Below, piece by piece: positions 2,286 to 53,257 of a stretch of 64,000 bases of DNA; position 1 is the first letter of the stretch, and the number at the start of each line of letters is the position of its first letter. The notes beneath the pieces are model-generated. The model was not told the origin of the DNA. It made no database searches and saw only the letters and a list, made by a program, of their open reading frames with translations. The translations under genes were made by a program, and so were the position numbers. The DNA comes from a virus (Duplodnaviria; Caudoviricetes). The DNA is taken from the IMG/VR virus record IMGVR_UViG_3300028374_000002, positions 1 to 64,000 of that record; one strand, written 5' to 3'.

Positions 2286-2540
2286 ATGAATTATCTTAAA
2301 CTTTTCGAGGATTTTATTGCAAATAACATAGAAGGTAGCTTAATAAAAGTTGATGATGTTATTGAGTGTATTAATAAAAATGGTTTATTATATGCAGAAA
2401 CTATAAATGATTACCCACAACACAACCCAGATGAGGGTTTGAAAGTGTTAGACGTAGATAACGAAGGACTTGTAACAGTAGAAATTGATTCACAAGCACA
2501 TGAAGTATATTTGGATAATATTATAAGACTAGAATTTTAA
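2286..2540 (+). CDS. Hypothetical protein with CTS-like leader (MNYLKLFEDF)
   Basis: ORF with TAATATATA 4 nt upstream. Confidence 0.75.
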   Translation: MNYLKLFEDFIANNIEGSLIKVDDVIECINKNGLLYAETINDYPQHNPDEGLKVLDVDNEGLVTVEIDSQAHEVYLDNIIRLEF

Positions 2541-2983
2541 CTAAGCAATTTCTTTATTAGAACTTGTCTTCTTAAACTTTTCATATAACTATTAATCTCA
2601 GAACCTCTATTTATTTCTTCATAAGAATATTTATCTTGTAAATACTCTTTGACTTCTTGGTAAAAATTTGGTCTTTTATCTTTTGACAGTACTAAAATTA
2701 GAATTTTATTTTGATTAACACAATAATCTATAAGCTCCACTATATTACCAAACTCATATATATCAGTATTAAAGTTTATTACTAAGTTTTGTTTAATCTT
2801 AGTCATATCAAACTTCTCTAGTCTATTAAAGCCAAATTTGTTTTTAATAGTAAAATCTTTACCTATGCTTTTTTCGGCACTTCTATATAGTAACAAAGAT
2901 GAATCTAGATTATTAGTAAAGTTGAAGATTTGAACTATTGTTCTTAAATCAAAAAAATTATGTAAATTTAACATATATACCAT
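2537..2983 (-). CDS. Hypothetical protein with C-terminal RxxxIxxLL tail
   Basis: Ends LRRQVLIKKLLS; TATATTTG at 3000-3007. Confidence 0.75.
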   Translation of the reverse strand: MVYMLNLHNFFDLRTIVQIFNFTNNLDSSLLLYRSAEKSIGKDFTIKNKFGFNRLEKFDMTKIKQNLVINFNTDIYEFGNIVELIDYCVNQNKILILVLSKDKRPNFYQEVKEYLQDKYSYEEINRGSEINSYMKSLRRQVLIKKLLS

Positions 2984-3103
2984 AATAAATAATTTATAAC
3001 AAATATACTATTTATTTTTCGACTTTAGAAACTATTGTACCAATTAGTTATATAATATATACAAAGGCTAGGCGGAACAGTTCTTATAAAAACAAAAACA
3101 TAT

Positions 3104-4846
3104 ATGATTATTACAAAAAATGTAGAAATGAAATTAGGTATAAGAAATGCTACTAGGATAATTAGCATGTATGACCTAGACAGTAATTTAAAGCCTGGTG
3201 ATACTGCACTAATACCAGTTAATTTATTATCAAAGTCATCAAATTATAAGATAAAAGTAAGTTGTGATTATTGTGGATTAGAATTATATGTTCCTTATAA
3301 AAGGTATAATAAAAGTACTAGTACTATAAGTAAGTATTCTTGCTCTTCAAAGCAATGCTCTAACCAAAAGATAAAAGAAGTTTGCCAAGCTAAGTATGGT
3401 GTAGATAACCCATTTCAATCAGATGTTATTAAAGATAAGATAAAAAAAACACTAAATGAAAAATATGGAAAAGACCACCCAATGTATGTAGATAAAATAA
3501 AATCTAAGATAAAGGATACATGCTTGAAAAGATATGGTGTTAGTAGCTATACCAAAACTAAAGAATATAAAGAGAAAACTATTAAAACTAATCTAGAAAA
3601 GTATGGTGTTAACTGGCCATTACAAAGTGAAGAAGTAAAAAATAAGGGAATAAAGACTAGTTTGGAAAAGTATGGTGTTAAATATTCACAACAATCATAT
3701 CTTATAAGACAAAAAACAATTAGAACTAATCTAGAAAAGTATGGTGTTAAGTGTAATTTACAATCAGATGATTCTAAAGCCAAGATAAAAAAGACTATTT
3801 TGGAAAAGTATGGCGTTGACAATATAATGGAGAATGATGTGTTTAGAGAAAAATTTAATATAACAAAAGATAATTCATATGTTAGTTATTTATCTGATAA
3901 AATGTCTAGATTTAAATGTGAGAAGGGTCACTATTTTGAAATAAGTTCAGATAATTATATTTCAAGACGAAAGAATAATGTAGATTTATGTACTGTTTGT
4001 AATAGTATAGGAGATTCTAAATCCTTAAAAGAAGAAGAGTTATATAATTTTATAAAAAGTATATATAACGGCAAAGTTGAGCAATCATATAGAGATGGTC
4101 TTGAGATAGATATTTACTTACCAACGCTAAATATAGGATTTGAGTTCAATGGTCTTTATTGGCACTCGGAATCCTACAAAGGAAAGGACTATCATTTAGA
4201 TAAGACTGAACATTTTAAAAATAGAAGAATAAAAATAATACACATTTGGGAAGATGATTGGGTAAATAAGACAGATATCATAAAAAGTCAAATAAATAAT
4301 TGGATTGGGTTAACAAGTAAAAAAATATACGGTAGGAAGTGTTTAGTTAGAGAAATAAGTGATAGCAAAGTAGTTACAAAGTTTTTAGATGAAAATCATA
4401 TACAAGGTAAGGTTAGAAGCAGTTTAAAGCTAGGTTTATATCATATGGATGAATTAGTATCAGTTATGACCTTTAGCCACAATGAAGGACGTAAGAAGAT
4501 GCCTAATAGTGAGTGGAACTTATCTAGGTTCTGTAATAAGTTAGATACAAGTGTTATTGGTGGTGCATCTAAATTATTAAAATATTTTCAAAGAAGTTTT
4601 AAACCAACTAGGATAATTAGTTATGCTGATAAAGATTGGTCAACTGGTGATTTATATTATAATCTAGGCTTTAAACTATCAAACATATCTAGACCAGACT
4701 ATAAATATATCATTAATAATAGAAGAGTTCATAAGTCTAGATTTAGAAAGAATAACCTAAATACTGAATTGTCAGAAAGTCAATATATGAAAAAATCCCA
4801 TATTTTGAAAATATGGGATTGTGGAAAAATTAAGTTTGAGATTTAA
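3104..4846 (+). CDS. Hef-like free-standing homing endonuclease
   Basis: N-terminal CDYC Zn ribbon, KTNLEKYGV repeats, PD-(D/E)xK core (EIDIYLP..IGFEFNGLYWHS..HIWEDDW), C-terminal GNAT/Mom-like segment (GGASKLLKYF..SYAD). Confidence 0.75.
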   Translation: MIITKNVEMKLGIRNATRIISMYDLDSNLKPGDTALIPVNLLSKSSNYKIKVSCDYCGLELYVPYKRYNKSTSTISKYSCSSKQCSNQKIKEVCQAKYGVDNPFQSDVIKDKIKKTLNEKYGKDHPMYVDKIKSKIKDTCLKRYGVSSYTKTKEYKEKTIKTNLEKYGVNWPLQSEEVKNKGIKTSLEKYGVKYSQQSYLIRQKTIRTNLEKYGVKCNLQSDDSKAKIKKTILEKYGVDNIMENDVFREKFNITKDNSYVSYLSDKMSRFKCEKGHYFEISSDNYISRRKNNVDLCTVCNSIGDSKSLKEEELYNFIKSIYNGKVEQSYRDGLEIDIYLPTLNIGFEFNGLYWHSESYKGKDYHLDKTEHFKNRRIKIIHIWEDDWVNKTDIIKSQINNWIGLTSKKIYGRKCLVREISDSKVVTKFLDENHIQGKVRSSLKLGLYHMDELVSVMTFSHNEGRKKMPNSEWNLSRFCNKLDTSVIGGASKLLKYFQRSFKPTRIISYADKDWSTGDLYYNLGFKLSNISRPDYKYIINNRRVHKSRFRKNNLNTELSESQYMKKSHILKIWDCGKIKFEI

Positions 4847-6306
4847 TCATGATTTGGATCAATAATTATTTGCTTAACCTTACTATTACTACTTGTAATA
4901 GGAACTTCAACACCAACTGATATCATCAGAATCCTACCTCTTATTTTTGATAGGTCAAGGCTATCACAGTAACCATCGGTTAATACAACTGTATTGTATT
5001 GATTGAATTCATTTACTACATAATCGATTGCTGGTTGTAGCATTGTACCACCTAAACCCTTGATACATATTGTTTCCAATGCTTTTTTGCTTTTTATATT
5101 CTTGACCCATTTTACTTCGGTATCTGCCTCAATCAAATTAACCTCAATATCATTTCTATATATGAAAGATAAGACCTTTTCAAATGTACCACCCATAGAA
5201 CCAGAGGTATCTAGTATACAATTAATTTTAGAACTTACTTTTTTATGACCTTTCAAGCCCTTGATACCTCTTCTATTAGCACGTGTAATAGTCTTTTGTT
5301 TGTTAGTACCAAATATAACATTAGAAATAGATCTTTTTATCTCTCTAAGATAATCCTTTCTTTTCTTACGAAGCTTTCCAAGTGTTTGTTCAATATCACC
5401 ACCTGATAATCCACGAGCTGCTAATCTGTCCATAACATCTTTGACCATTCCCTCTCTCATTTCTTGGGGAACTTCATCTTCAATATGTTTATCTAAGTAC
5501 TCTCCATCACCATTCTCCATATCTTGGAAAATTTGTTCTTTAGACCATGTATCAACAGTACTTCCACTTGAAGAATTTTTACCATAAGGTCCATAAGAAG
5601 GCTTACCTTTAGAATCTTTCCCCTCACCATTACTGTTTCCACTACCTTCACAGTCTGGACAGTCATCTGATTCACTCTTGCCTTCACCATCACCACTTTG
5701 TGGATCACCATCTTTGCCTTCTTCTTCACTCTTATCACCATCACCACTTTCACCACCATCTTCGTCTTTTTTACCAGACCCACCACAAGACTTACACTCT
5801 GATTCTTGTTTCTCTTTCAACCATTTGTCCTTCTCATCTTGCATCCATTCATACAAGTGTTCAAAGATTAGTTCACCATCATATTCTTTAGGTACAAAAA
5901 GTGCCATGTTCTTACCATCACTAGATTTTGGTATCTCAACAAAAGAGTGAGATATATCATCCCATATAATATGGTTGATAATCATATCTTGTACAATATT
6001 CGATAACTTGTGATCAAAATTCCCAGTAACTGTTCTTTTTGGGTGATCAAATAGTAAGTGAAAATCCTCATGGAGAATAATAAAGTTCACTTCTTTTTGT
6101 GACATATCTTGTAGAAACTTAGGAGAGTAGAAAAAATTCATTCCTCTAGATGTTACATTAACTGCACATGTTCCTATTGAATCACGCTCTGTGAAATTGA
6201 CTTGAAGGTTAAACTCACCGTAGTATGGGAGGTTAACCTTCGTGTCGATTAACATTGTTTGCACTCCGTCTACAATTTTTTCGTGAATGTTTTTGTTGAA
6301 TATCAT
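4843..6306 (-). CDS. DUF2201-type putative metallopeptidase with C-terminal vWA domain
   Basis: HEDFH (HExxH), acidic Gly/Ser linker with CxxCxGxG motifs, MIDAS-like ILDTSGSMGG..GGT..LTDG. Confidence 0.85.
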   Translation of the reverse strand: MIFNKNIHEKIVDGVQTMLIDTKVNLPYYGEFNLQVNFTERDSIGTCAVNVTSRGMNFFYSPKFLQDMSQKEVNFIILHEDFHLLFDHPKRTVTGNFDHKLSNIVQDMIINHIIWDDISHSFVEIPKSSDGKNMALFVPKEYDGELIFEHLYEWMQDEKDKWLKEKQESECKSCGGSGKKDEDGGESGDGDKSEEEGKDGDPQSGDGEGKSESDDCPDCEGSGNSNGEGKDSKGKPSYGPYGKNSSSGSTVDTWSKEQIFQDMENGDGEYLDKHIEDEVPQEMREGMVKDVMDRLAARGLSGGDIEQTLGKLRKKRKDYLREIKRSISNVIFGTNKQKTITRANRRGIKGLKGHKKVSSKINCILDTSGSMGGTFEKVLSFIYRNDIEVNLIEADTEVKWVKNIKSKKALETICIKGLGGTMLQPAIDYVVNEFNQYNTVVLTDGYCDSLDLSKIRGRILMISVGVEVPITSSNSKVKQIIIDPNHD

Positions 6307-6329
6307 ATTTTGGATTTTTTATTACAATA

Positions 6330-6359: not shown

Positions 6360-6390
6360 TGCCTTTCTCTGTAAAATATATATTTATTTC

Positions 6391-6457: not shown

Positions 6458-8074
6458 ATGCTATTAGATAAATATATCGAAGTAAAGATTTCTAAGAAGA
6501 ATATAGAACACTTTTCAAAGTATTATAAAAATATATCTATCAAAGATGTATTAAGGATAAGGACTGATGAACTCCAGAGTGGTTCTAATAAGAGGATTAA
6601 AGTTAAATGTGATAATTGTTATATTGAAAACTTTATAAAATACCAGTCTTATTTTAAGAACATAACTTCATCTGAAAAACATCCAATATACACATGTGTT
6701 AAGTGTTCTCATATTAAAATAAAGTCTACTAACATGGATAAGTATGGTGTTGAATATTATTCTAAAACTGATGAGTATAATGCTAGGTTTAGAAAAACTA
6801 TGAAACAAAGGTATAGTGTGGAATACCCAACACAATCTAAAGAAATTTTAAATAAAATTAAAAATACTAACTTACAAAGATATGGTGTTGATAACATATT
6901 TAAAGATAATTCTTATATAAAAGATAAATTCATAGAAAAGTACGGTGTTGACCATCCTAGTAAAGTAAAAGAAATATATGATAGGGTGAAAGAAAGTAAT
7001 TTAAGGTCAACAGGATATGAATCCCCATTATCATCACCAGAAATAAGGGAGCGAATCAAAGAAACAAATAAGAGACTTTATGGTTCTAATACACCAAGTC
7101 AGTCTAATAGTGATAAAGGCATATCCTTGATGTCTTGTAAGAAGAATCATATATATGAGATAAGTTCGTCAAATTATCATAGTAGAAAACGTGATTGTGT
7201 ACCATTGTGTACTGTATGTAATCCTATCAGTTCTACATCTTCTATAAAGGAAAAGGAATTATATGAGTTCATATCTAGTATGTATAATGGTAGTATTATA
7301 AGGTCATTCAAAGATAAAAGAATAGAGATAGATGTATACATACCAGAATTAAAAATAGGCTTTGAATTTAATGGTCTATATTGGCATTCCGAAGAATATA
7401 AAGATAGAGATTATCATATTAAAAAAACAGAGTATTTTAAGGATAAGGGAATAAGGATTATACACATTTGGGAAGATGATTGGGTAAATAAGACAGATAT
7501 CATAAAAAGTCAAGTAAAAAATTGGCTAGGTTTAACAACACATAAGATATATGCCAGAAAATATATTATTAAGGAGGTTAGTGATATAAAAATTATCAGA
7601 AAGTTTCTTGATGAAAACCACATACAAGGCTTTGTAACATCAAGTAAGAAAATAGGATTATATTATGATGATGTGTTAGTATCTATTATGGTTTTTGACC
7701 ATAGAGAAGGTAGGGATAAAATGAATGATAACCAGTGGAACTTGTCTAGGTTTTGTAATAATAAGAATACTGTAGTCATTGGTGGTGCTTCTAGGCTTCT
7801 TAAATATTTTATGAAGTCTTATAGTCCTGTTAGAATTATAAGCTATGCTGATAGAGACTGGTCAGAGGGCAATGTGTACTATAATTTGGGGTTTGATATG
7901 GTAAAATCTAGTAAACCAGATTATAAATATATTGTCAATAGTAAAAGAGTGCATAAGTCAAGATATAAAAAATCTAATTTAGAAACAAATCTGACTGAGA
8001 ATGATTATATGAAAGCTAATAGTTACAAGAAAATATGGGACTGTGGGAAGATTAAGTTTGAAATTATTATATAG
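6458..8074 (+). CDS. Hef-like homing endonuclease paralogue
   Basis: Same domain order and motifs as 3104..4846. Confidence 0.75.
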   Translation: MLLDKYIEVKISKKNIEHFSKYYKNISIKDVLRIRTDELQSGSNKRIKVKCDNCYIENFIKYQSYFKNITSSEKHPIYTCVKCSHIKIKSTNMDKYGVEYYSKTDEYNARFRKTMKQRYSVEYPTQSKEILNKIKNTNLQRYGVDNIFKDNSYIKDKFIEKYGVDHPSKVKEIYDRVKESNLRSTGYESPLSSPEIRERIKETNKRLYGSNTPSQSNSDKGISLMSCKKNHIYEISSSNYHSRKRDCVPLCTVCNPISSTSSIKEKELYEFISSMYNGSIIRSFKDKRIEIDVYIPELKIGFEFNGLYWHSEEYKDRDYHIKKTEYFKDKGIRIIHIWEDDWVNKTDIIKSQVKNWLGLTTHKIYARKYIIKEVSDIKIIRKFLDENHIQGFVTSSKKIGLYYDDVLVSIMVFDHREGRDKMNDNQWNLSRFCNNKNTVVIGGASRLLKYFMKSYSPVRIISYADRDWSEGNVYYNLGFDMVKSSKPDYKYIVNSKRVHKSRYKKSNLETNLTENDYMKANSYKKIWDCGKIKFEIII

Positions 8075-8083
8075 AGTACTTAT

Positions 8084-8269
8084 TTATTTTAATAATTCTT
8101 TTAATCTTTCTGCTCTTAGTTCTTTTTTTATTCTCATTTTTTCAGCTTCAATATCTTCTATTGAAGGCTGAAACATACTAGTCATATTAATGACATTGGA
8201 AACATCCCATTTTGAGATATCAGCATTAGAACTAGTGCAACCTTTAAACCGATTATTTATATTACTCAT
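8084..8269 (-). CDS. Small protein: one DUF285-like repeat plus RxxRLxxLL tail
   Basis: DISKWDVSNVINMTSMF followed by ELRAERLKELLK. Confidence 0.6.
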   Translation of the reverse strand: MSNINNRFKGCTSSNADISKWDVSNVINMTSMFQPSIEDIEAEKMRIKKELRAERLKELLK

Positions 8270-9596: not shown

Positions 9597-9962
9597 TTAT
9601 TCTCCTAATATTCTTAAACGACATTCTCTAATACCTTTCTTGTCGTTTATACCTGGTAATTGTTTCCCATATATATCTCTTACAGATTCAATATCTATAA
9701 GTTCATCTTCTGTTTCAATTATTAGTTCAGTTAAATATTTGTTAGTAGTATTCCCCCCATTTAAAAGTTCGTATATATCAAAAGCTTGTTTTCTAAATGG
9801 TAAACAGTTTGATGATACAAAATTATTGTCGTAGTCATGTTTATCAAATGTCATAAGAAGTAGCAAATGAAGTTCTTTATTAGATAATTGTCTCATTGAC
9901 TTTATTCTATTTCTAGTATGGATTGTTAAGAATATATCCACTAGTAAATTACTTACTAACAT
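9597..9962 (-). CDS. Hypothetical protein with C-terminal tail
   Basis: Ends IRECRLRILGE. Confidence 0.65.
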   Translation of the reverse strand: MLVSNLLVDIFLTIHTRNRIKSMRQLSNKELHLLLLMTFDKHDYDNNFVSSNCLPFRKQAFDIYELLNGGNTTNKYLTELIIETEDELIDIESVRDIYGKQLPGINDKKGIRECRLRILGE

Positions 9963-20014: not shown

Positions 20015-21361
20015 CTAATTGATTTTAAAATTTCTTTTAAGATTTGTCAAATCAGTAAGGTACATATCCTTGGGTAATGTTTTTTTTATAACATCTATCT
20101 CTTCTTTCTTAACTTTTAAATCTGCTTTAAGTTTATCAAATAATTCCTTAGTTAATGAATATATAGGCATTCTAAGTAAATAATCATATGTATTATCTAT
20201 CTTATCTAATCCAAGCTTCCCAATACTAATTATTATATCACTTTTTTTAACATTATTTACTTTTAACTTATTGTCTAGTATAGCTTTTATAAACTTAGCC
20301 CTATTACTTAATACCTTATATTCCCTTTCTAACTTACTAATTAGATATTCTTTCCTTTTGTCATAGTATTTCAGTCTAAAGTCTACAAAATATTTAACTA
20401 TTTCCTTTGAAGATTCAAATAACTTAAGTTCACCATTTTCATCTAATGTTGAGAATATCTCATGGGATGTTTCTTCTAATTTAAGTAATTTTACTATATT
20501 TTCATCTGTTAATTTTTTTAGTTCACTTCTTTTGAATTTAATAGTATAGTCTACATTATCTTTACAATTATCTTCATAAGAAATTATCTCTTTCTTATCA
20601 CATAATTTGTCCAATAAAATTTCATATTTTTCATAAGTCATAGATATAGGAAGTTCATACACTTTAATTGTAGTTGTGTTAATCCTTTCAAAACATCCCC
20701 TAATGTACCACTTCTTATTATTTTCCTCATCTTGTCTATATGATCCGATAAAATTATTTAAAGCAGGTGGAATTTCTTTTATCCCCTTTCCATTCAACAA
20801 TTTCTGACAAGCTGTTATTATATCAACCATATCTCTGTTGAGAATATTTGAAGCAAATCCTACTGCAATACCCTTAGAACCGTTTATGAGAACAGTTGGT
20901 ACAATGGGTAAAAAATATTCTGGTTCTATTATCTCACCCTCTTCTTCCTTATGTTTTAATAATTCGAAGTCCTTGTATATAAGTCTAAAATTATTAGATA
21001 GTTTAGTACCAATATACCTTGATGCACCTGCTTTTGGTGATCTTAAACTACCAAATTGTCCATCCTCATCTAATAGTGATGCATTGTTTTTGAAATGTTG
21101 TGCTACTGTTATTATTGAATTTTCTAGACTTTGATTTCCATGGTGGTAAAAAGCATCTGATGCTATCTTACCAGCAAGTTGAAATACCTTTAAAGATTTT
21201 TCATTACCAGTTTTCCATATTTGGTTAGATACGTGTAAAATCTTTCTATGGCTAGGTTTGAAGCCGTCTATAACCGAAGGAATAGCTCTATTTTCTATGG
21301 TATACATAGCAAATTCTTTATATTCATCTGATAAAAATTCGGTAATACTCTTCTTTTGCAT
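20015..21361 (-). CDS. Type IIA topoisomerase breakage-reunion subunit (T4 gp52/GyrA-like)
   Basis: RAIPSVIDGFKPSHRK, YHHG, ASRYI catalytic Tyr, LINGSKGIAVGF. Confidence 0.95.
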   Translation of the reverse strand: MQKKSITEFLSDEYKEFAMYTIENRAIPSVIDGFKPSHRKILHVSNQIWKTGNEKSLKVFQLAGKIASDAFYHHGNQSLENSIITVAQHFKNNASLLDEDGQFGSLRSPKAGASRYIGTKLSNNFRLIYKDFELLKHKEEEGEIIEPEYFLPIVPTVLINGSKGIAVGFASNILNRDMVDIITACQKLLNGKGIKEIPPALNNFIGSYRQDEENNKKWYIRGCFERINTTTIKVYELPISMTYEKYEILLDKLCDKKEIISYEDNCKDNVDYTIKFKRSELKKLTDENIVKLLKLEETSHEIFSTLDENGELKLFESSKEIVKYFVDFRLKYYDKRKEYLISKLEREYKVLSNRAKFIKAILDNKLKVNNVKKSDIIISIGKLGLDKIDNTYDYLLRMPIYSLTKELFDKLKADLKVKKEEIDVIKKTLPKDMYLTDLTNLKRNFKIN

Positions 21362-27188: not shown

Positions 27189-27320
27189 ATGGTAGAGAAT
27201 TTTTTAGAACTAGTAGACATAGAAGATGTAATTCACACAGAAGAATATGTTAACATGGTTGATATAGCTGTTGATGTTGATCAGAGCTTCTTATTAAGTA
27301 ATGGTATTATATCACATAAT
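27189..27320 (+). mobile_element. Split intein C fragment (44 aa)
   Basis: Block F MVDIAVD..SFLLSNG, block G IISHN, Ser+1 at 27321. Confidence 0.9.
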
Positions 27321-27922: not shown

Positions 27923-28267
27923 ATGAGAAATCGTGCATGGAGAAGGCATATGAGCGAGAAACATACTAAAAGAAGACTTAAGGAAAAAAATAATATTATT
28001 TTTTCTTTTAGAAATGCTAATGATGTACTGTATTTATGGAACGGTGCAAGATATATAGAACTTTTGAATACTTATTTTTACTACATTGCTAAAGGATGTG
28101 TTTCAACCACACAAGATTCAAGATATAAACAAAAATATTCTAGAAATAATTGTAGAAATAGTTATGCATGGAAAGGAGATAGTAATACTAGAGTAGAAAA
28201 AAGAAATGAACTTAGAAAAATACTTAAAGAAAATGGATTTAGAAGAGGTAATACCACTGGGTTATAG
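27923..28267 (+). CDS. Basic hypothetical protein
   Basis: ORF. Confidence 0.65.
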   Translation: MRNRAWRRHMSEKHTKRRLKEKNNIIFSFRNANDVLYLWNGARYIELLNTYFYYIAKGCVSTTQDSRYKQKYSRNNCRNSYAWKGDSNTRVEKRNELRKILKENGFRRGNTTGL

Positions 28268-28769
28268 ATGTGATAAGAAATGGAATATTAGTGGAGAGTA
28301 TCTTAGATATAAAAAATTTGAGAACTTACCACTAGCTTCAATATCAGAATCTAATATAGTAATGGTATATTTAGATCACCGAATGAGAAAAGAGTGTTTG
28401 AGGCTTATTAAACACCTTTTGGAAAAAGATTATAAGTTTTATTTAATACCACCATATTTTACTAACCCAAAGATAAATCAAGAATATGATGATGTTATAG
28501 AGCATTACTTATATACACATTCTGAGCAGTATTTTTTTGATAAGTTTCCAGATATTGGATTTGATTTAGTATCAAACCTAGTTACTTTCTGTAGAGACAC
28601 AGATACAATGACCTCTCTTAAAACTATAGTGGATAATTTTAGAGTCAAAGTTAATGCTACCGAATGGGATATTTATACAAATAAGCTAAGCCATATATAT
28701 AGTGAGGGAATAAGAAATGAGTTCGATACAATGTTTAGAAGTATAAGGTTAAAGTATATTTTGTCTTAG
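28206..28769 (+). CDS. Hypothetical protein with C-terminal tail
   Basis: Ends FRSIRLKYILS; start uncertain (62-nt overlap). Confidence 0.7.
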   Translation: MNLEKYLKKMDLEEVIPLGYRCDKKWNISGEYLRYKKFENLPLASISESNIVMVYLDHRMRKECLRLIKHLLEKDYKFYLIPPYFTNPKINQEYDDVIEHYLYTHSEQYFFDKFPDIGFDLVSNLVTFCRDTDTMTSLKTIVDNFRVKVNATEWDIYTNKLSHIYSEGIRNEFDTMFRSIRLKYILS

Positions 28770-33109: not shown

Positions 33110-34978
33110 TTATTTGACTTCTTCAAAATCCACGTCCTCTGTATCATCAGATTCATTCTTTGTGGTTTCTTCCTCATTATTATATAATTTTGAACTTATA
33201 TCATTCCAAGATGTATTGAGTTTTTCAACCTTTTCATCTATTGCCTCTGCTTCTTCTGACTTATACGCATCTTTGAGTTCGTTTAAGCTATTGCTAAGGA
33301 CTTCTTTATCATCGCTTGATAACTTATCATCAAACTCTTTTAACTGCTTCTCTGTTTGGAAAATAAGCGTATCTGCTTTATTCATCTTATCGACTTTCTC
33401 TTTCTCTAGGTTATCAGCCTCTGCATTTGCCTCTGCTTCTTCTTTCATTTTGCTTATCTCTTCCTTAGAGAGTTGGGAACCACCTTCAATTCTTATTTTA
33501 TTTTCCTTACCAGATGCCTTATCTTTAGCAGATACTGATAGAACACCATTTGCATCAATATCTAAAGATACTGTAATCTGTGGAACTCCTCTAGGGGCTG
33601 GCAAAATGCTATCTAGATGAAATCTGCCCAAAGATTTATTATCTTTAGCCATTGGTCTTTCACCTTGTAAGACATGTATCTCAACACTTGACTGGTTATC
33701 TGATGCAGTTGAGAAGGTTTCTTCTTTTGATGTTGGTATAGTTGTATTGCCTTCAATTAGTTTTGATAATATCCCACCCATAGTTTCGATACCTAATGAT
33801 AGTGGTATAACATCTAATAAAAGAACATCATCTATACTTCCTGTTAGTACTGCTCCTTGTATAGAAGCACCAAGTGCTACAACTTCATCGGGATTTACCG
33901 ACTTATTAGCCTTCTTATTTAAAAACTTCTCTAGTGCTTCTTGAATAGCTGGTATTCTTGTTGAGCCACCAACTAATATAATCTCATCAATATCTGATGG
34001 ATTTAGTTTAGCATTTTTAAGTGCAGACTTTGCACAATCTATTGTTCTTTTAACTAAATTAGATGTTAGTTGTTCAAATTTAGCCTTTGTCAAGGTTTTA
34101 ACAAAATGAAGTGGTCCAGAATTACTTACCGTTATATATGGAAGATTTATTTCTGTTGTACTTGAAGAAGATAACTCTACCTTAGCCCTTTCCCCCGCAT
34201 CTTTTAGCCTCTGTAAAGCCATTGGATCTTTAGACAAATCAATAGAGTTTTCTTTCTTAAAGTCATCTACCATCCAATCAATAATAGCATCATCAAAGTC
34301 ATCTCCACCTAAGTGTGTATCACCATCAGTTGACTTAACCTCAAATACACCATCTCCAATTTCTAATACCGATACATCATGTGTCCCTCCACCGCAATCA
34401 AACACTAGAATCTTAGAATCTGCATCTTTCTTATCAAAACCATATGCTAATGCGGCTGCCGTTGGTTCATTAATAATTCTCTCAACCTTTAAACCCGCAA
34501 TTTCACCTGCCTCAATTGTTGCAGTTCTTTCAACATCTCCAAAATATGCAGGTACTGTGATTACTGCTCTAGTCACTTCTTGACCTAAAAAGTCTTCTGC
34601 TGTTTTTTTCATTTTCTGTAAAATCATTGCAGAAAGTTCTTGTGGAGTAAAAGTTCTATCACCTATCTTCACACTAGGTACATCATTACCACTGCTTACA
34701 ACATTGTATGGTACTCTTGATACCTCCTCTTTTAATTTTGAAAAGCTTTTACCCATAAATCTCTTTATAGAATAAATAGTATTCTCTGGGTTAGTTACTG
34801 CTTGTCTCTTAGCAGAGTCTCCCACTTTTCTTTCACCATCACTTGTAAAGGCTAGTATAGATGGTGTTGTTCTTTTTCCTTCTGAATTAGCTATGATTTG
34901 TGGTTCACCACCTTCAACAACTGAAACACAGCTATTTGTAGTACCAAGGTCAATTCCGATAATTACGTCTTTTTTCAT
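33110..34978 (-). CDS. dnaK: Hsp70 chaperone DnaK (start reassigned to [16 protein letters not shown])
   Basis: [42 protein letters not shown]. Confidence 0.98.
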
Positions 34979-35031
34979 ATATTTATTATTTTTTAGTATA
35001 AATAGCCAATAAATATGCCATTTGTTTTTAC

Positions 35032-35046
35032 ATGACAAAATGTCAT
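35032..35046. promoter_or_regulatory. Palindrome upstream of dnaK, operator-like
   Basis: Perfect ATGACA-AAA-TGTCAT about 55 nt upstream of the start. Confidence 0.45.
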
Positions 35047-42341: not shown

Positions 42342-42581
42342 CTATTCTATAATTAACTTGTGTGTAATAGTTTGTTTATTTTTTATCAAAAAATAACCAC
42401 CAATTGCCAAACCACCAATAAGACCTAACCAAATTTGTCCATCAATAGGAGCTGGAACATCTTTTACAGTACCATCACCAGGCAGCATAGGAGGATTTCC
42501 TCCTGCACCAGGTTGGGCTATAAGAGATCCTACTGAAAAAAGTGAGAGGATAAGAATAAAAAGTATTTTTTTAGTTTTCAT
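42342..42581 (-). CDS. Small secreted/membrane protein of PID-CTERM type
   Basis: Signal peptide, Pro/Gly linker, PAPIDG plus TM helix plus basic residues. Confidence 0.7.
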   Translation of the reverse strand: MKTKKILFILILSLFSVGSLIAQPGAGGNPPMLPGDGTVKDVPAPIDGQIWLGLIGGLAIGGYFLIKNKQTITHKLIIE

Positions 42582-42612: not shown

Positions 42613-45600
42613 TTATTCTACAATTAATTTGTGTGTAGTCGTCTGAGTTTGATAGGTCAGTCTAATTAGATAAACACCAGTGTTCAGACTGCTTGTATTT
42701 AGTTTTAATTCTGATGTAGATATACGTTCATTTTGAATCTCTATATTTTGACCTATGACATTAAAAACTGAAACCTTTAATTCGTTGTTGAAATATGGAT
42801 TATGCGTAATATATACAAATCCCGAATTTGAAGGGTTTGGATAAAGTTGTGTACTTGCTATCCTCTCGTCTTGGGATGTACATAAAGTGCTATCTTGTTC
42901 AAACATAATTTTAAATCTATCTGAATTTACAGAACCTGGTATTGAAGAGTCAATATCAAAAGCAATATCGTTTTCACCTTCATTCAATTGATGATCCTCT
43001 TCAGTGTAAGTATCTCTTAAGAATACATCATAATCTGGCATGTTTTCAACTTCAATATTCATGATATAATCTACATCTCTGTAATTGTCAATCCAAAAGC
43101 TAAATACATCATCGTCTTTAGGAAAAGGTCTTTTTTCGATAGCTAAATAATTTCCATCAGATTGAATTCCGATAGTTTCATCATCATTCCAGAATTTTAA
43201 AGCATCATCAGGACCAGCTTCTTCATTGTAAGTAGCATCAAATTTAAATCTTACACCATCCATCAATTCATTATTAGAGATACTGAAGATATTTAAATCT
43301 ATTTTTGAGGTAGGAACGTCTCTGAAAACTTCATTAGTTGAAGTACTGTCTGTTTTAAATTCTTCTTTAAAAGTCAATGAAGGGGCTTCATTTTCTGGAA
43401 CGACACTATTAGTCTGAACAAATACAGATTGATTGACTTGTAAATAGCGAAATTTTTCTGGACTTATATTAGGAATATTAGGGACGTATTCTATAGGTTC
43501 AGAACTTAAATCAACTGTAACATAACCACCTCTATCACCAATATTTGGTTTATAAGCATAGTAAAACCTTTTGCCCAAATGTGTTGAACTATTTTTTAGA
43601 GTTGCTTTCATATCAACTTCAGCTTGGTATGGATTACCAATTAAAGAAAAACCTTCTGGATTAGGATTTAAATCATCATTTATGTTTACATCACCAGTCA
43701 AAATAGTCCCCAAAGATCTCAATCTTGTATCATCGCCTTTAGCTAAATTATTTAAATACATATTTGTGCCTCTATCACCCCTAATCAAAATTCCGTAGGC
43801 TTTACCAGCTTCTAAAGTGTTTGTGTTTGTATTGGAAATTGTTGACCAAATCCCATTTTGTGAATTCCAAGAAAATAGAGATGGATTTCCAGTGCGTGTG
43901 GCATCAAGTCCATTAGCACCAGTTGTACTGCCTGTAATGTGTGTGCCATAACCAGGATTTGGGTCTTTATTTTCTTCGTAATCATTAACTGTATTGTTAA
44001 CCCCTTCTTGCCAGTTTTCATTTATGGAAGTTGTGGTATTTACAGAAGTGGTCATAAATCTAAAAGCTCTATTTCCCATAGGAATGTAACGTTCAATCAT
44101 AACCTCACCAACTATAGTATTATCATTTTCAATTTCACTAATAATAGCTGTGTGAGTAGCATTAGATTTAAAAGTTACTAGGTTATTATCTGGAATAGCA
44201 TGGTCATAATTTGTGATTAAATCACCAGTTATTAAATTTAAACTACCTAACACATTTACATTACCAGATACTAGATTTAAGCTGTGACCGTTATCGATAG
44301 TCAAGCTGTATACTGAAGTAGTACTATCTGTAGAAAAATTCTGAATTCCAGCTCCTTTAAATGCCAAAGTTGAGTTTCCTGGATTATAGGTACCATTATT
44401 TTCAAAATCACCATAAATATCAATTTGAGATTCATTGGTTTGTGAGACACTAGCACCATTAGCGATCAACAAATTTTTAATTTCTACATTCTCTGAAAAA
44501 ATGGGATCATTTGGTGTGATATTAATCACAATATCACTATTTCTATCAGGGAAGCCATTACTCCAATTGTTTATATTTTCAGCATCAGTAGAAACTACAC
44601 CAATCCAAACGGTTGGCTCTGGTGTACAATCTTCTATACCAACTGTTCCGTTAAACACCCAATTTCTGTCTGGGGGAATTTCTGAGAAACTAGGGATTGT
44701 AATTGCACTTTCATTGTTGGCAGTAATTCTACCTCCCCATCCAGCAACTTCTCCATTTAGGATAATTTTATTACAACCTGAGCTGGATTCTATAAGGCCA
44801 GCATGACTTGTTAAGTTATTAAAAATGATTTCTTCACCGAATTGAATTGTGCCCGTAGAATTGATTACAGTACTTCCAATAATTTCAAAACCAGCATTAG
44901 CTGCAATTTTACCACTCCACACTTTTAAATCACAATTGACAATAAAACTGTTTTCGACAATAAGTTCGGCATTGTTAGAATTGCTTTCTAGATCTCCTAA
45001 AATGGTTAAATCACCAGAAATATTAGCGTATGAATCATTTCTGAATTTTTGAGAGAAATTTATCGTTCCAGAAGAATTGATAGAACCATTACTGTTGGCA
45101 AGATTGTCTTCAAAAGTTGTAGAACCTTCATTATTTAAAGTAAATCCATTGCCCATTTGTTCATACGAACCAGAATTAACATTAAGGACACTACCAGTAT
45201 AAACGTTGATAAGACCACTGTCAAAGTTGGTACCGCCACCAACTAAATTTGTTGATGCCCCATCATAGGAATTTAAAGTACCATTTTGTAATTTTACTAC
45301 AGTAGTAAGTGTACCGTAATTATTTATTACAGAATTATTTTTAATTAAAATCGTAGATTGAGTTCCATGATTAAAATTTCCGTAATTATTAAGTGTTAAA
45401 TTATTTCCGCTATTTGGCCAGTTAAGACCTTGTGAGTTAAATGTTACGCCTTCACCAATACATAATGTTCCATTGTTTCCAATATCTTTCCAATTAGCAT
45501 TGTACGTAAAGTTACCACTTAAACATATTGTTTTATTATTCAAATTACCAGTAGGCCAATCATCATCAGAATCATCAATGACATAATCACAATCGCAATC

Positions 45601-45756
45601 CAAATTTATATCTTGAGAATTTGATTTAATATTAATTAAAACATCACTATTTCTATCAGATTTATTGTTGACTAATTGTTGGTCTTGTGCCATTGAGACA
45701 ATGGATGTCATCAAACCAATTATCAAATAAATCATTACTTTTCTAAATTTATTCAT
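42613..45756 (-). CDS. Large secreted protein with T9SS C-terminal sorting domain
   Basis: Sec signal peptide, Asn/Gly-rich beta-repeat body, C-terminal LYPNPS..VSVFNVIG..LNTGVYLIRL..THKLIVE. Confidence 0.9.
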   Translation of the reverse strand: MNKFRKVMIYLIIGLMTSIVSMAQDQQLVNNKSDRNSDVLINIKSNSQDINLDCDCDYVIDDSDDDWPTGNLNNKTICLSGNFTYNANWKDIGNNGTLCIGEGVTFNSQGLNWPNSGNNLTLNNYGNFNHGTQSTILIKNNSVINNYGTLTTVVKLQNGTLNSYDGASTNLVGGGTNFDSGLINVYTGSVLNVNSGSYEQMGNGFTLNNEGSTTFEDNLANSNGSINSSGTINFSQKFRNDSYANISGDLTILGDLESNSNNAELIVENSFIVNCDLKVWSGKIAANAGFEIIGSTVINSTGTIQFGEEIIFNNLTSHAGLIESSSGCNKIILNGEVAGWGGRITANNESAITIPSFSEIPPDRNWVFNGTVGIEDCTPEPTVWIGVVSTDAENINNWSNGFPDRNSDIVINITPNDPIFSENVEIKNLLIANGASVSQTNESQIDIYGDFENNGTYNPGNSTLAFKGAGIQNFSTDSTTSVYSLTIDNGHSLNLVSGNVNVLGSLNLITGDLITNYDHAIPDNNLVTFKSNATHTAIISEIENDNTIVGEVMIERYIPMGNRAFRFMTTSVNTTTSINENWQEGVNNTVNDYEENKDPNPGYGTHITGSTTGANGLDATRTGNPSLFSWNSQNGIWSTISNTNTNTLEAGKAYGILIRGDRGTNMYLNNLAKGDDTRLRSLGTILTGDVNINDDLNPNPEGFSLIGNPYQAEVDMKATLKNSSTHLGKRFYYAYKPNIGDRGGYVTVDLSSEPIEYVPNIPNISPEKFRYLQVNQSVFVQTNSVVPENEAPSLTFKEEFKTDSTSTNEVFRDVPTSKIDLNIFSISNNELMDGVRFKFDATYNEEAGPDDALKFWNDDETIGIQSDGNYLAIEKRPFPKDDDVFSFWIDNYRDVDYIMNIEVENMPDYDVFLRDTYTEEDHQLNEGENDIAFDIDSSIPGSVNSDRFKIMFEQDSTLCTSQDERIASTQLYPNPSNSGFVYITHNPYFNNELKVSVFNVIGQNIEIQNERISTSELKLNTSSLNTGVYLIRLTYQTQTTTHKLIVE

Positions 45757-46041: not shown

Positions 46042-46223
46042 AATTCAAATATTATTAATACTAACCAAGTAATTGTACACGATAAGTTCTGCCCTTATCA
46101 TCTTCCCAAACACTTCTACAATTAATCATGTTTATTTCATCACCGTGTACATTTCGAACATGTCTTAGGTTCAGGCTTTTTGCCTTCTCTATAGTTATAA
46201 CACAAAATGTTCTTAGATACAAA

Positions 46224-46427
46224 TTAAACATATTGGCTTAATGTATCAATAGCGTTTTCAATTTCCCTTTTACCACTCTCAAGTCCATCAGTTGCTTCAT
46301 CAAAACTCTCTAATAATTCACTAAGCTCACTAAATAAATCACGAAGCTTATCTCTTTCTTTTGAAATTACAATCTTTGATTCTTCAATACCTGATAATAC
46401 CTTGTCTAATTCTTCTTTAGTTACCAT
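46224..46427 (-). CDS. Small coiled-coil protein
   Basis: ORF; TATATTTG at 46489-46496. Confidence 0.65.
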   Translation of the reverse strand: MVTKEELDKVLSGIEESKIVISKERDKLRDLFSELSELLESFDEATDGLESGKREIENAIDTLSQYV

Positions 46428-48540: not shown

Positions 48541-48957
48541 TTACCCAATCATTTGCTCTAGGTTAGCATTTCTATTTATCATCTTATCACCACCTAATTC
48601 TTTTTTTATCATAGAAACTCTGCATTTTAAATTTCTGTCACTATCACAACTCGTTATAACAGGATATATACTGTTTCTAGGCTTAATATTAGAGATAGTT
48701 CTCTTATGACCGAATCTGTCTGTAAAAGACATTCCAATTACATTTTGTGTAAATCCAACTTTCCTACATAACATTCTTTGTATTTCATAATTTTTACCAA
48801 CATTTTTAGACAATGAGAGTTCGATGTTTATGTTGCAAGATAATACGTTGCTACTATGTTCACTTATTAAATATTCTAGACCTTCTCTTTTTGTAATATC
48901 AGAAATGGCTTTATCTATTTCTTTCTTGATACTGTCAATTTTAATTTTAGTAAGCAT
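48541..48957 (-). CDS. Hypothetical protein with degenerate C-terminal tail
   Basis: Ends INRNANLEQMIG. Confidence 0.7.
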   Translation of the reverse strand: MLTKIKIDSIKKEIDKAISDITKREGLEYLISEHSSNVLSCNINIELSLSKNVGKNYEIQRMLCRKVGFTQNVIGMSFTDRFGHKRTISNIKPRNSIYPVITSCDSDRNLKCRVSMIKKELGGDKMINRNANLEQMIG

Positions 48958-49074: not shown

Positions 49075-50148
49075 TTAGACTATGAAGTCAGATTTTAGTT
49101 CCTTTAGTGTAGCAAGAAATACTTTTATAGCATTATCAACATCATCCTTGTGTGACATCTCAACTGTTGAGTGCATATACTTAAGTGGTGTTGCAATCAT
49201 GGCAGTTTCTATACCTTCTCTAAAAAAAGATAATGTATCATTACCAATAGATCCAATTTCGATTTGTAGTGGTATTTTATTTTCTTTTGCAACATTTCTT
49301 ATCAAAGCATTAATCCTTTTAGAATTCTGGTGTGTATAATGGACACTTGGTCCCTTACCACCTATAACATCACCGTGCTTAGCTTTATTATAAGAAGGTG
49401 TCGTTGTGTTGTGGCAAACATCATGCACTAATGCTAAATTAGGTCTTATTTTCTTGGCCATATGATTTGCACCCTCTAGTCCAACTTCTTCTTGGGAAGA
49501 ATTCACGACATAAAGGTCAAAATCAAGTTGTATTTTTTTACTAACAACAAGCCTTGCTACCTCTGCAATAATAAATCCACCAATCTTGTTATCCACACTT
49601 TTACAAGTGTAGTAATCTCCAATCATAGAGAATTTAGTATCATTTGTAATCAGATTACCCACTTCAACACCACTTTCCAAAACGGCATCCTTATCTTTTA
49701 ATCCTAAGTCAATATAAAGTTCGTGTTGATCAGGGCCATTTTCAACACTATTGTTTCTAGTATGAATAGCAGCCCACCCAAATACACCATTAGAAGTGTT
49801 TCCATTATGGTGGTGTATAATTACTGGTCTTGATGGTGCAATCATATTATCACTACCACCGTTTCTCTTAACTCTTAATAATCCACTATCTTCTATATGT
49901 GAAATCATCCATCCAATTTCATCAACATGTGCCTCTATGACAACTTTTTTTGCATCTGGTTTACCACATCTTATAATGCCATATGAACTATGATAAACAT
50001 CTCTGTGTATGTTTTCTCTGTCTATAAATTTAGACAAATATTCTTCCCATACATCTTGTGCTTCTTTTTCATTACCAGATGGTGAATGTGTGTTTAGATA
50101 ATTCTCTAAAAATCTTTTACTCTTCTTTCTCATTTTTGCTTTTTTCAA
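49075..50148 (-). CDS. M42 family aminopeptidase
   Basis: SPSGNE, EAHVDEIG, KSVDNKIG, SQEEVGLEGA, VHDVCH, YMHSTVE. Confidence 0.92.
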   Translation of the reverse strand: MKKAKMRKKSKRFLENYLNTHSPSGNEKEAQDVWEEYLSKFIDRENIHRDVYHSSYGIIRCGKPDAKKVVIEAHVDEIGWMISHIEDSGLLRVKRNGGSDNMIAPSRPVIIHHHNGNTSNGVFGWAAIHTRNNSVENGPDQHELYIDLGLKDKDAVLESGVEVGNLITNDTKFSMIGDYYTCKSVDNKIGGFIIAEVARLVVSKKIQLDFDLYVVNSSQEEVGLEGANHMAKKIRPNLALVHDVCHNTTTPSYNKAKHGDVIGGKGPSVHYTHQNSKRINALIRNVAKENKIPLQIEIGSIGNDTLSFFREGIETAMIATPLKYMHSTVEMSHKDDVDNAIKVFLATLKELKSDFIV

Positions 50149-50155
50149 TTTATAT

Positions 50156-50353
50156 TTAGTTTAAGTCTTTTAATAATGATTTAGCAGTCTTATACTGCCT
50201 TTCGCTTAGTATTCTTATATTTCGCTTGCCAATATTAACTTTTTCTAAGTATTTATTACTCTTTAATTGCTTTTTTAAGGATGTTAAGAAGGTATTTTCT
50301 CCTTTATAAGTTCTTATTTCTTTATTCAATTCTATCTTTTGTTCCAGTTCCAT
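50156..50353 (-). CDS. Hypothetical protein
   Basis: ORF; TATATTTG at 50379-50386. Confidence 0.7.
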   Translation of the reverse strand: MELEQKIELNKEIRTYKGENTFLTSLKKQLKSNKYLEKVNIGKRNIRILSERQYKTAKSLLKDLN

Positions 50354-50463
50354 TATTTGTATGTGGTTAATATTCGTGCAAATATACTAAAAAATATAAA
50401 TAAGAACCTATAATATTAAACTTTTATACCATTTTATGTTATAATATAAAAATAAATACATAT

Positions 50464-50949: not shown

Positions 50950-50950
50950 T

Positions 50951-51865
50951 ATGGAAAATGAAAAGAGTGTGATAATAATAGGTTCTGGACCAGCAGGATA
51001 TACTGCTGCATTGTATGCAGCAAGAGCTGGTTTAAAACCACTAATGATAACTGGGCAGAAAATAGGAGGGCAATTAACTGATACAAATGATGTTGAAAAC
51101 TTCCCAGGATATAGAGAGCCAGTAACTGGTCCAAAAATGATGGAAGATTTTAGATATCAAGCAGAAAAGTTTGGCACTGAAATCATAGAATCCTATATTG
51201 AATATGTTGACACTTCACAATATCCCTACGTTATAAAAGACCATAGAGGTACAGCATATAAAGCTAAGTCAATAATAATATCAACTGGTGCAGAAACCAA
51301 ATGGTTAGGTATTGAATCCGAGACTAAATATAGAGGAATGGGTGTCTCATCATGTGCAACATGTGATGGGTTCTTTTATAAAGACCTTACAGTTATCGTG
51401 ATTGGAGGCGGAGATACCGCTGCCGAGGAAGCCCTTTATCTTTCTAACATATGCAAGTCTGTGATAGTTTTAGTTAGAGGGAATGATATGAAGGCATCCA
51501 AAATAATGCAAAATCGTTTGTTTGATAATGACAAGATAATAGTTCATTTTAATACACATATTGAAGAAATATTAGGTGAGGAAAATAAGGGTGTTACTGG
51601 TGTAAGGATAGGTTCAGGAGATGTGCTTCAGTGTGATGGTGTCTTTGTTGCCATTGGACATAATCCAAGCACAGAAATATTCAAAAATATAATTGATTTA
51701 GACGATGATGGATACATAATAACTAAGCCTAAAAGTACCGAAACTAGTATAGATGGTGTATTTGCATGCGGTGATGTACAAGACAAAAAATATAGACAAG
51801 CTATAACAGCCGCAGGTACTGGATGTATGGCGGCATTAGATGCAGAAAAGTACCTATCAAAATAA
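50951..51865 (+). CDS. trxB: Thioredoxin-disulfide reductase
   Basis: IIGSGPAG, CATCDG, GGGDTA, FACGDV..YRQAITAAG. Confidence 0.97.
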   Translation: MENEKSVIIIGSGPAGYTAALYAARAGLKPLMITGQKIGGQLTDTNDVENFPGYREPVTGPKMMEDFRYQAEKFGTEIIESYIEYVDTSQYPYVIKDHRGTAYKAKSIIISTGAETKWLGIESETKYRGMGVSSCATCDGFFYKDLTVIVIGGGDTAAEEALYLSNICKSVIVLVRGNDMKASKIMQNRLFDNDKIIVHFNTHIEEILGEENKGVTGVRIGSGDVLQCDGVFVAIGHNPSTEIFKNIIDLDDDGYIITKPKSTETSIDGVFACGDVQDKKYRQAITAAGTGCMAALDAEKYLSK

Positions 51866-51881
51866 ATAAAAATAATAAACT

Positions 51882-52406: not shown

Positions 52407-52409
52407 ATT

Positions 52410-52925
52410 ATGGAAGATTTAGATAAAAGTCAAATGAAAAGGCAAATTATAATAGATTCTTTGTGTACAGGTATTGTAAATACCTCTGACTTCATAGACG
52501 ATATAAACTACTTAATAGATAAAAGGATGTGTGACTTATCTGACGTTTTATATAATATTAGTATATACGATGGTGAAGATGATAAAATCATAGATCTTAT
52601 ATTACCCACATATAGAAAGGTGTGGTCTTCTGTTTATATAAACATTCCAACATATTTCGAATATACATCTAGAGATAGAGATGAAACATTAAAGCTATAT
52701 CAAATAATGTTTAATGCTGATGATTTCTTTGATCATTTTATAGAAGTCATAGATAAGACTAGAGGATCTTTTGAAAGATTTGATTATATAGATAAGACGG
52801 TTACTCATGTTAGTGTTATAGCGGATGATTATATATGCTACTTGATAGATCGTGTCTTAAATTGCAAAGATGTAAAAATGGAGATTAGAAATGCAAAATT
52901 GAAACAAATAAACAGAAGTAAGTAA
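52410..52925 (+). CDS. Hypothetical protein with C-terminal tail
   Basis: Ends IRNAKLKQINRSK. Confidence 0.7.
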   Translation: MEDLDKSQMKRQIIIDSLCTGIVNTSDFIDDINYLIDKRMCDLSDVLYNISIYDGEDDKIIDLILPTYRKVWSSVYINIPTYFEYTSRDRDETLKLYQIMFNADDFFDHFIEVIDKTRGSFERFDYIDKTVTHVSVIADDYICYLIDRVLNCKDVKMEIRNAKLKQINRSK

Positions 52926-52930
52926 CAAGC

Positions 52931-53257
52931 ATGAGCAAACTAAAAAATTGGAAGCTTAAATCAACTAATATTTCTATTAATGATACTACTAGGAAACGTT
53001 GTGAAACTAATGCTGAAATATACATGAATAAGTTTAAAATAATATTTGAAAACTTATTCGAATCGTCTTATTATTGTGGTGGTAATGTACCTACAAAACA
53101 AGAAGTAGAATCCCATTTAAACTCACTTGGATTTAAACTAACTATAAAAAAAGATGGAACTATGGTTTTGAAGTATAGTAGATACTTTGACATAGTACTT
53201 GATAGCAATACAAATTCAATAATAAGAGCAATTAAATTAAAAAATATTTTAAAATGA
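52931..53257 (+). CDS. Hypothetical protein with C-terminal tail
   Basis: Ends IRAIKLKNILK. Confidence 0.7.
   Translation: MSKLKNWKLKSTNISINDTTRKRCETNAEIYMNKFKIIFENLFESSYYCGGNVPTKQEVESHLNSLGFKLTIKKDGTMVLKYSRYFDIVLDSNTNSIIRAIKLKNILK

Follow-up and report, generated by a model that had tools for sequence, protein, structure and literature searches.

The window analysed here spans the first 64 kb, about one third, of one contig, G000 (201,264 bp; 28.8% G+C), which comes from a giant lake-water phage, and the element under study is a short peptide, hereafter the tag, that ends a series of small, otherwise dissimilar proteins encoded there. CheckV puts the completeness of the IMG/VR record at 28%; therefore, the contig represents only part of a far larger genome. 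The contig encodes a DnaK that shows 72-75% identity to the DnaK proteins of the uncultured phages LR745206.1 and LR756502.1 (634 kb and 642 kb), and a common gene order links it to related IMG/VR contigs of 281-483 kb. The genomes compared are three near-complete relatives (G001, 483 kb; G002, 385 kb; G003, 281 kb); the published huge phages LR756504.1, LR756501.1 and LR756508.1, taken in full; LR745206.1 and LR756502.1, sampled around dnaK or grpE only; and Lak-A1, sampled over 100 kb. A sequence-only reading of the window had proposed a portable C-terminal tag on 12 proteins, and all 12 tails are found at the C-termini of real open reading frames (ORFs). The strict pattern R..[KR][LI]..[LIM], with the arginine as position 1, was sought in the last 14 residues of ORFs; it fits 10 of the 12 tails, the remaining two being near variants with Leu (ORF 2537-2983) or Asn (ORF 48541-48957) at position 4.

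On the minus strand, the tags are RAERLKELLK (8087-8116), at the end of a 61-residue DUF285 fragment (ORF 8084-8269); RECRLRILGE (9600-9629), at the end of a 121-residue protein of no family (ORF 9597-9962) that has a tagged orthologue in G002 (35% identity); RSYKLEKLGI (13599-13628), at the end of ORF 13596-13883 (95 residues), whose likely orthologues, recognized by C-terminal region and gene order, end in RNYKLEKLGI in G001 and REYKLEKLGL in G003; RSERLSSLLK (14305-14334), at the end of ORF 14302-15063 (253 residues), also tagged in its G002 orthologue (27% identity); RKSKINKILK (15070-15099), at the end of ORF 15067-15345 (92 residues); REYRLKRLFN (16008-16037), followed by three more residues in a zinc-ribbon-like protein of 73 residues (ORF 15996-16217); and REEKLKKLLK (19558-19587), at the end of a Cys-rich protein of 98 residues (ORF 19555-19851). 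The two variants lie on the same strand: the near-tag RQVLIKKLLS (2540-2569) ends a 148-residue protein, with its arginine 10 residues from the end, and RNANLEQMIG (48544-48573) ends a 138-residue protein whose whole GGDK-x-INRNANL ending is kept in relatives. The plus strand carries RSIRLKYILS (28737-28766), ending a protein of 187 residues encoded between topoisomerase and 5'-3' exonuclease genes (ORF 28206-28769); RNAKLKQINR (52887-52916), followed by SK, in a protein of 171 residues that we call X (ORF 52410-52925), encoded between grpE and dnaJ; and RAIKLKNILK (53225-53254) in protein Y (ORF 52931-53257; 108 residues), encoded between X and dnaJ. For these three the sequence-only reading had given 28206, 52410 and 52931, which are the starts of the ORFs. 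Two carriers in the window were absent from its list: the 56-residue ORF 46061-46231 on the minus strand, with the tag-like end RTYRVQLLG (46064-46090), and a weak one at 54518-55153; further carriers lie past the window at 74036, 75961 and 94837 of the contig. Pfam-type matches among the carriers of the window are confined to the DUF285 fragment and the zinc-ribbon-like protein.

The pattern is concentrated at protein ends far beyond chance. Internal positions and shuffled sequences, the two controls suggested along with the original proposal, were run on the window, and the C-terminal excess holds in both: among 93 ORFs, 10 matches fall within the final 14 residues, where 500 shuffles yielded 0.08 on average and never more than 2, and three matches occur at 18,285 internal positions, an 80-fold C-terminal enrichment per position. 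Across four genomes the excess over internal positions is 23-45 fold, and the pattern occurs in 6.7% of called genes but in 0.6% of ORFs that overlap called genes in other frames. Shuffles, internal positions, overlapping out-of-frame ORFs and three tag-free AT-rich huge phages together rule out a composition artefact of an AT-rich genome. In the whole 201-kb contig, 10 of the 14 matches place the arginine at a distance of exactly 10 residues from the C-terminus; between zero and five residues follow position 9, and the last residue varies (K, I, S, A, G, E and others).

The constraint falls on particular residues. When one position of the pattern is relaxed at a time in four genomes, position 1 is Arg in 110 of 143 otherwise matching tails (77%; background 3.3%), position 4 is Lys or Arg in 110 of 160, position 5 is Ile or Leu in 108 of 113, position 8 is Ile, Leu or Val in 118 of 120, and position 9 is Leu, Gly, Ile or Phe in 108 of 116; the search pattern therefore does not account for the conservation. 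The tags are written in synonymous codons at the frequencies of the genome at large, are closed by any of the three stop codons and are followed by unrelated DNA. Given this variation, the constraint acts on the peptide and not on the DNA, and a DNA-level element is ruled out. Tags share the same codon only slightly more often than expected in G002 and G003 (0.66-0.68 versus 0.54-0.55), so recent copying explains little. Orthologues shared by G000 and G002 typically have 45-77% identity, and the figure falls to 24-41% for those with a tag, yet in six of seven pairs both members are tagged. As judged from these sequence comparisons, purifying selection is acting on the tag.

The proportion of ORFs that are tagged is 6.2% in G000, 8.1% in G001, 8.6% in G002, 10.8% in G003 and 10.4% (98 proteins) in LR756504.1, compared with 0.5% in LR756501.1, 0.7% in LR756508.1 and none of 108 ORFs in the 100 kb of Lak-A1. 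The five tag-positive genomes thus hold 250 carriers in total, from about one in fifteen proteins in G000 to about one in nine in its relatives, and LR745206.1 and LR756502.1 are tagged too in the regions sampled. An unbiased count of three-position patterns finds the tag to be the most C-terminally enriched pattern in G003 and gives tag patterns seven of the top eight places in LR756504.1; the same count finds nothing comparable in LR756501.1 and LR756508.1. The tag is clade-specific, and within its clade it is a real, strongly selected and clade-wide feature. No description of such a tag was found in full-text literature searches or in two recent preprint surveys of huge phages.

Within the clade the tag is spelled differently from lineage to lineage. 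The tags of G001-G003 follow R-[DEN]-x-K-[IL]-x-x-[IL]-[LIG], with Asp, Glu or Asn at position 2 in 113 of 137, whereas those of LR756504.1 follow R-K-x-[KR]-I-x-x-L-[NLY], with Lys at position 2 in 39 of 61 as against 7 of the 137 (p = 1e-18 to 1e-23 for the contrast at position 2); positions 4, 5, 8 and 9 are shifted between the same two sets as well. G000 departs from its relatives in having Asp or Asn at position 2 in 2 of 14 tags versus 76 of 117 (p = 4e-4) and Arg at position 4 in 6 of 14 versus 7 of 117 (p = 5e-4). The carriers of LR756504.1 have no detectable homologues among those of the other clade. The dialects have changed in step across dozens of unrelated carriers, as a common co-evolving reader predicts.

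The bodies to which the tag is attached have nothing evident in common. The sequence-only reading had held the carriers to be unrelated, and BLASTP bears this out: the proteins show no similarity to each other, and after removal of the tail each is a family of its own (15 in G000, 52 in G001, 41 in G002 and 44 in G003), which rules out paralogy. The 58 carriers of at least 105 residues have weak Pfam matches only, to six families with one member each, and a Pfam scan of the ten largest carriers gave no match. None of the 250 exceeds 287 residues and the median is 105, although 20% of all ORFs are longer than 300. Tagged proteins are not enriched in transmembrane-like segments (5.9% versus 11.2%), charge or CxxC pairs.

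Tagged genes are also set apart by their arrangement. Adjacent pairs of them are two to three times commoner than expected. In G000-G003, 35% overlap the next start codon, compared with 18% of other genes; because of this greater overlap, 34% of tagged genes end in TGA, compared with 16% of others (p = 1e-6). These figures point to tight coupling of translation in arrays of small genes. A late-type TATA motif stands upstream of 7% of tagged genes, 31% of other genes (p = 1e-11) and 55% of the genes for proteins with a different, N-terminal leader. That tagged proteins lack this leader, as had been claimed, is very nearly true, since one of 78 leader proteins is tagged (p = 0.018). The accompanying claim of host-type promoters stands in part: three tagged genes and several operon leaders are preceded by TAnnTTTG at a distance of 24-35 nt, but for tagged genes as a whole the motif shows no enrichment in the sequence directly upstream. 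The operons that hold tagged genes also carry replication and host-takeover-type genes. The view that tagged genes are a class apart from the late, leader-bearing genes is supported.

Two of the carriers, X and Y, form a cassette with chaperone genes. The phage grpE (51882-52406, plus strand; PF01025, 2.5e-21) is its first gene and dnaJ (53254-54315, plus strand; J domain, zinc-finger domain and C-terminal domain) its last, and the order grpE-X-Y-dnaJ recurs in at least seven related loci (L001, L002, L004, L008, L012, L013 and L075). The phage dnaK lies elsewhere, on the minus strand at 33110-34978; its longest ORF (33110-35038) has a 20-codon N-terminal extension without counterpart in any homologue, and the true start is probably the ATG at 34978. 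An M42 (TET-type) aminopeptidase (49075-50148) and a thioredoxin-reductase-like flavoprotein (50951-51865) adjoin the cassette and add to the proteostasis gene set of the phage. X and Y have no Pfam family but are widespread in metagenomes. X has 453 homologues, counted as cluster representatives, in a large protein collection, and the strict tag is kept in 98 of the best 120 representatives; when 68 X sequences are aligned, nine columns are invariant, and the arginine of the tag is among them. Y has 307 homologues, likewise cluster representatives, with the tag kept in 120 of 120. The cassette is not universal: grpE abuts dnaJ in LR756502.1, with neither X nor Y between them, and X is absent from LR756504.1. 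On one ENA contig (L080; 95.8 kb, 32.6% G+C) the two tails are degenerate (10001-10866), X ending in RDLRISKTLKKW and Y lacking Lys at position 4, and there is no other tagged gene in 20 kb around them; the tag system may be decaying in that lineage. In-step change within the X family was checked for the variants RDLRISKTLKKW and RDKNLK... on two contigs, where neighbouring tags are few.

The earlier suggestion that the tail is an amphipathic helix agrees with two AlphaFold2 models. X is predicted to be all-alpha (predicted local distance difference test, pLDDT, 89.5), with the tag in a terminal helix at residues 155-170, and the G003 orthologue of Y is predicted to be alpha/beta (pLDDT 85.1), with the tag in a helix at residues 90-103. 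In both models a short loop leads into a terminal helix of 14-16 residues that contains the tag, the folds themselves being unrelated; on such a helix the conserved positions 1, 4, 5, 8 and 9 fall on one face. Fold searches with both models against the PDB and AlphaFold DB clusters gave no significant match. A prediction of the complex between the body of X (residues 1-150), the body of Y (residues 1-88) and the 32-residue tail of an unrelated G003 carrier returned no answer (score 0.00), which is neutral either way.

The explanation that we prefer, with a probability of roughly 0.6, is that the tail is a docking or address helix with a single reader that co-evolves with it. It would be a short linear motif, portable between proteins, that forms an amphipathic helix of two to three turns at the protein end, with the consensus hydrophobic-R-[DEN]-x-K-[IL]-x-x-[IL]-[LIG]-x-COOH; one common partner, encoded by phage or host, would grip its conserved face (Arg1, Lys4, Ile/Leu5, Ile/Leu8 and Leu9) and would handle small, fast-evolving, non-late orphan proteins as one group. 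The existence of a single reader, with binding as the function of the tail, is the step that we infer. Several points weigh against this address helix. No partner has been found: the phage DnaK/DnaJ/GrpE, the ClpC-like unfoldase described below, and X and Y are leads, none of them confirmed. The terminal helix of X is modelled at a pLDDT of 84-92 and may pack on its own body instead of hanging free. With between zero and five residues trailing it, the free carboxylate itself is probably not read. The dialects could partly reflect copying of the tag within a lineage, given the slightly raised sharing of codons in G002 and G003, and the comparison of dialects covers only two independent tag-positive lineages.

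One alternative is that the tail is a degron, through which a Clp- or Lon-type machine would remove early tagged proteins at a set time, either an N-domain-less ClpC-like unfoldase working with host or phage ClpP or a host protease. The ssrA and MuA signals are C-terminal, as is the tag; the carriers belong to the non-late class; the M42 aminopeptidase gene of the window stands beside tagged genes; G001 has two clpP genes; and a ClpC-like AAA+ protein of 704-726 residues, in which no domain precedes D1 and a VGF loop is present, is encoded in each of the four relatives G001-G004. However, the ClpC-like gene also occurs in the tag-free LR756501.1 and LR756508.1 and is not found in the 201 kb of G000 (28% complete), and an ordered helix with one conserved face, as modelled, would suit docking in a groove better than threading through a pore. 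A phage-encoded ClpP is present in one of five records, and as a phage-encoded partner it is set aside. Altogether a degron appears unlikely. The ClpC-like genes (G001:315339-317453, G002:285157-287292 and G003:27826-29994) encode a protein of 704-722 residues without an N-domain, in which an acidic start is followed by D1, two Walker A sites stand 337 residues apart, and a G-V-G-F loop resembles the ClpP-docking loop.

It is similarly doubtful that the tail is a handle for Hsp70, by which the phage DnaK/DnaJ/GrpE, perhaps via X and Y, would hold, fold or deliver small tagged proteins. The phage DnaK system was among the hubs proposed by the sequence-only reading, and gene context speaks for it, in that X and Y, both tagged, separate grpE from dnaJ in the window as well as in the related loci. 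DnaK, DnaJ and GrpE are encoded in every tag-positive genome tested, and of 45 shared genes GrpE is one of only 8 that every tag-positive genome has and that LR756501.1 and LR756508.1 both lack. The tail abounds in basic residues, Leu and Ile, as DnaK-binding segments reportedly do (Ruediger et al. 1997). Against this, LR756501.1 and LR756508.1 have DnaK and a J protein but no tag, Lak-A1 has DnaK and GrpE yet no tag in 100 kb, LR756504.1 has 98 tagged proteins without X, and LR756502.1 has neither X nor Y between grpE and dnaJ. GrpE as a phyletic marker of the tag held for six genomes and failed on Lak-A1, and X is unlikely to be a universal reader, given its absence from LR756504.1 and from between grpE and dnaJ in LR756502.1. 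The residues of the tail are also spaced for a helix (i, i+3, i+4), whereas DnaK binds extended segments, and position 2 is acidic in most tags, a charge that DnaK disfavours.

Less probable still is that there is no specific reader, the tail being either a generic amphipathic end helix that associates with membranes or nucleic acids, or caps and stabilizes its own protein, or a module that spread within each lineage by inheritance or copying. At the protein end, as in MinD and FtsA, a single helix face holds both basic and hydrophobic residues; in two genomes the tags share codons slightly more often than expected; and the helix of X is modelled with good confidence, as if packed. Yet the tail has three hydrophobic positions only, with an acidic position 2 and polar positions 6 and 7; the conservation of Arg1 far above background would be needless for a generic helix; transmembrane-like segments are not enriched; and the carriers are unrelated and their tags are not DNA-level copies. 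Loading of the virion, with the tag as a second capsid-targeting signal, is very improbable: terminal peptides are known to bring cargo into shells of the HK97 fold, the heads of these phages are very large, and the N-terminal leader in the same genome resembles the T4 capsid targeting sequence, but tagged genes are depleted in the late-type motif that leader genes favour, tag and leader are nearly exclusive, and tagged genes share operons with replication and host-takeover-type genes.

A more far-reaching proposal can be put forward tentatively: a dedicated, co-evolving reader may collect up to about 100 small early orphans per genome and decide their fate jointly, by timed removal or delivery, so that the tag, together with the N-terminal leader that would send late proteins to the head, would make up a viral sorting code of two labels. 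Small orphans account for the majority of huge-phage genes, and a tail shared by 6-11% of ORFs is a first handle on this dark matter, grouping about 250 proteins in five genomes, and hundreds of metagenome homologues, into one functional class. The tag is a direct bait for the machine that handles its carriers, and the dialects make the question of a reader testable by swapping tails between phages. A single reader, if it exists, would offer phage-specific control of many early effectors at once and a portable label for engineering.

Several other genes of the window merit description. A protein of 1047 residues (42613-45756, minus strand) has at its C-terminus a sorting domain for type IX secretion (PF18962, 1.7e-13), which suggests that this phage protein may be exported through the type IX secretion system of the host; the adjoining 79-residue ORF (42342-42581, minus strand) has the same ending, ...T-H-K-L-I-[VI]-E. 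From the sorting domain and the TAnnTTTG motifs, the host is presumed to be a member of the Bacteroidota. Three large paralogues (3104-4846, 6458-8074 and 21441-23273) share the ending ...KIW-[DS]-CG-[KQ]-I-[KR]-[FW]-[EI]-I, and DUF7487 was found in the one of them that was scanned with Pfam; one of the three lies among the genes for topoisomerase II subunits (20015-21361, 24081-25823 and 27189-27908), a position that resembles a mobile endonuclease-type insertion. A DUF2201 protein (4843-6306, minus strand), which joins a VWA-like domain to a putative metallopeptidase, keeps 68-77% identity among G000-G003 and is one of their better conserved genes; proteins of this type usually partner MoxR-type AAA+ ATPases.

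Comparison with known systems places the tag near several families of terminal peptides. The clamp-binding peptides (those of T4/RB69 gp43, gp33 and gp55, the beta-clamp motif QL[SD]LF and PIP boxes) likewise stand at the extreme C-terminus of unrelated proteins, tolerate variable trailing residues and are spelled in a lineage-specific way; they serve one hub, as the tag would. The tag, however, has no conserved Gln or aromatic pair and does not fit the patterns Q-L-[SD]-L-F, S-L-D-F-L-F or Q-x-x-[LIM]-x-x-[FY][FY]; its carriers, at 15-98 per genome, are far more numerous than known clamp clients; and none of them is a replication protein, the pieces of the family-B DNA polymerase being untagged. 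No gp45-type clamp was detected with PF09116. Matches to family-B DNA polymerase occur in ORFs of 409-576 residues (G000:98402-101793, and in G001, G002 and LR756504.1), and in G001 and LR756504.1 they fall at two distinct loci; the polymerase of these phages thus appears to be split over more than one ORF.

The encapsulation peptides of bacterial microcompartments (PduP, PduD, EutC and CcmN) and the cargo peptides of encapsulins are short and amphipathic, are set off from unrelated bodies at the protein end and bring many proteins to one shell; a terminal amphipathic peptide separated by a linker from an unrelated body is likewise what the models of X and Y predict. Encapsulin peptides, however, are extended and rich in Gly, Ser and Leu, whereas the tag would be an Arg/Lys helix, and the only HK97-type shell expected here is the phage head, but tagged genes avoid late promoters. 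The window proteins that were put through general Pfam scans gave no match to a shell family (BMC-H, BMC-P or encapsulin), no search having been aimed at PF00936, PF03319 or PF04454. The capsid targeting sequence of T4, the N-terminal leader of IPI-III and Alt, is a portable address peptide on unrelated phage proteins, as the tag would be, but the tag is C-terminal, lacks the Leu/Ile-x-Glu site of the prohead protease and belongs to non-late genes.

Degrons and adaptor tails (ssrA; MuA, RRKKAI; the SspB XB peptide, ...LRVVK) are C-terminal, short and partly basic or aliphatic, and one AAA+ machine, or its N-domain, reads many substrates. These signals, however, are recognized in extended form at or close to the free carboxylate (LAA-COOH, RRKKAI-COOH), whereas the tag is predicted to be helical, follows another pattern and, given its trailing residues, probably does not share this use of the carboxylate. 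The membrane-targeting helices of MinD and FtsA are terminal, basic and amphipathic, with 8-12 residues; MinD ends in ...KGFLKRLFGG, and tails such as REYRLKRLF are similar. These helices conserve amphipathicity, with a broad hydrophobic face, and not sequence, whereas the tag keeps Arg1 and Lys4, has few hydrophobic residues and varies in coordinated dialects. The DnaK motif is an extended hydrophobic core of four to five residues between basic ones, acidic residues being unfavourable; basic residues, Leu and Ile are frequent in the tail, but its spacing (1, 4, 5, 8, 9) is helical and its position 2 is mostly acidic. As far as the comparisons with clamp-binding motifs, degrons, the T4 sequence and the shell-directed peptides can be tested, the tag fails their defining features, in motif pattern, carrier types, position, promoter class or use of the free carboxylate; the principle that by analogy it would share with them, by which a single hub recognizes unrelated proteins through a short peptide at their ends, is already known.

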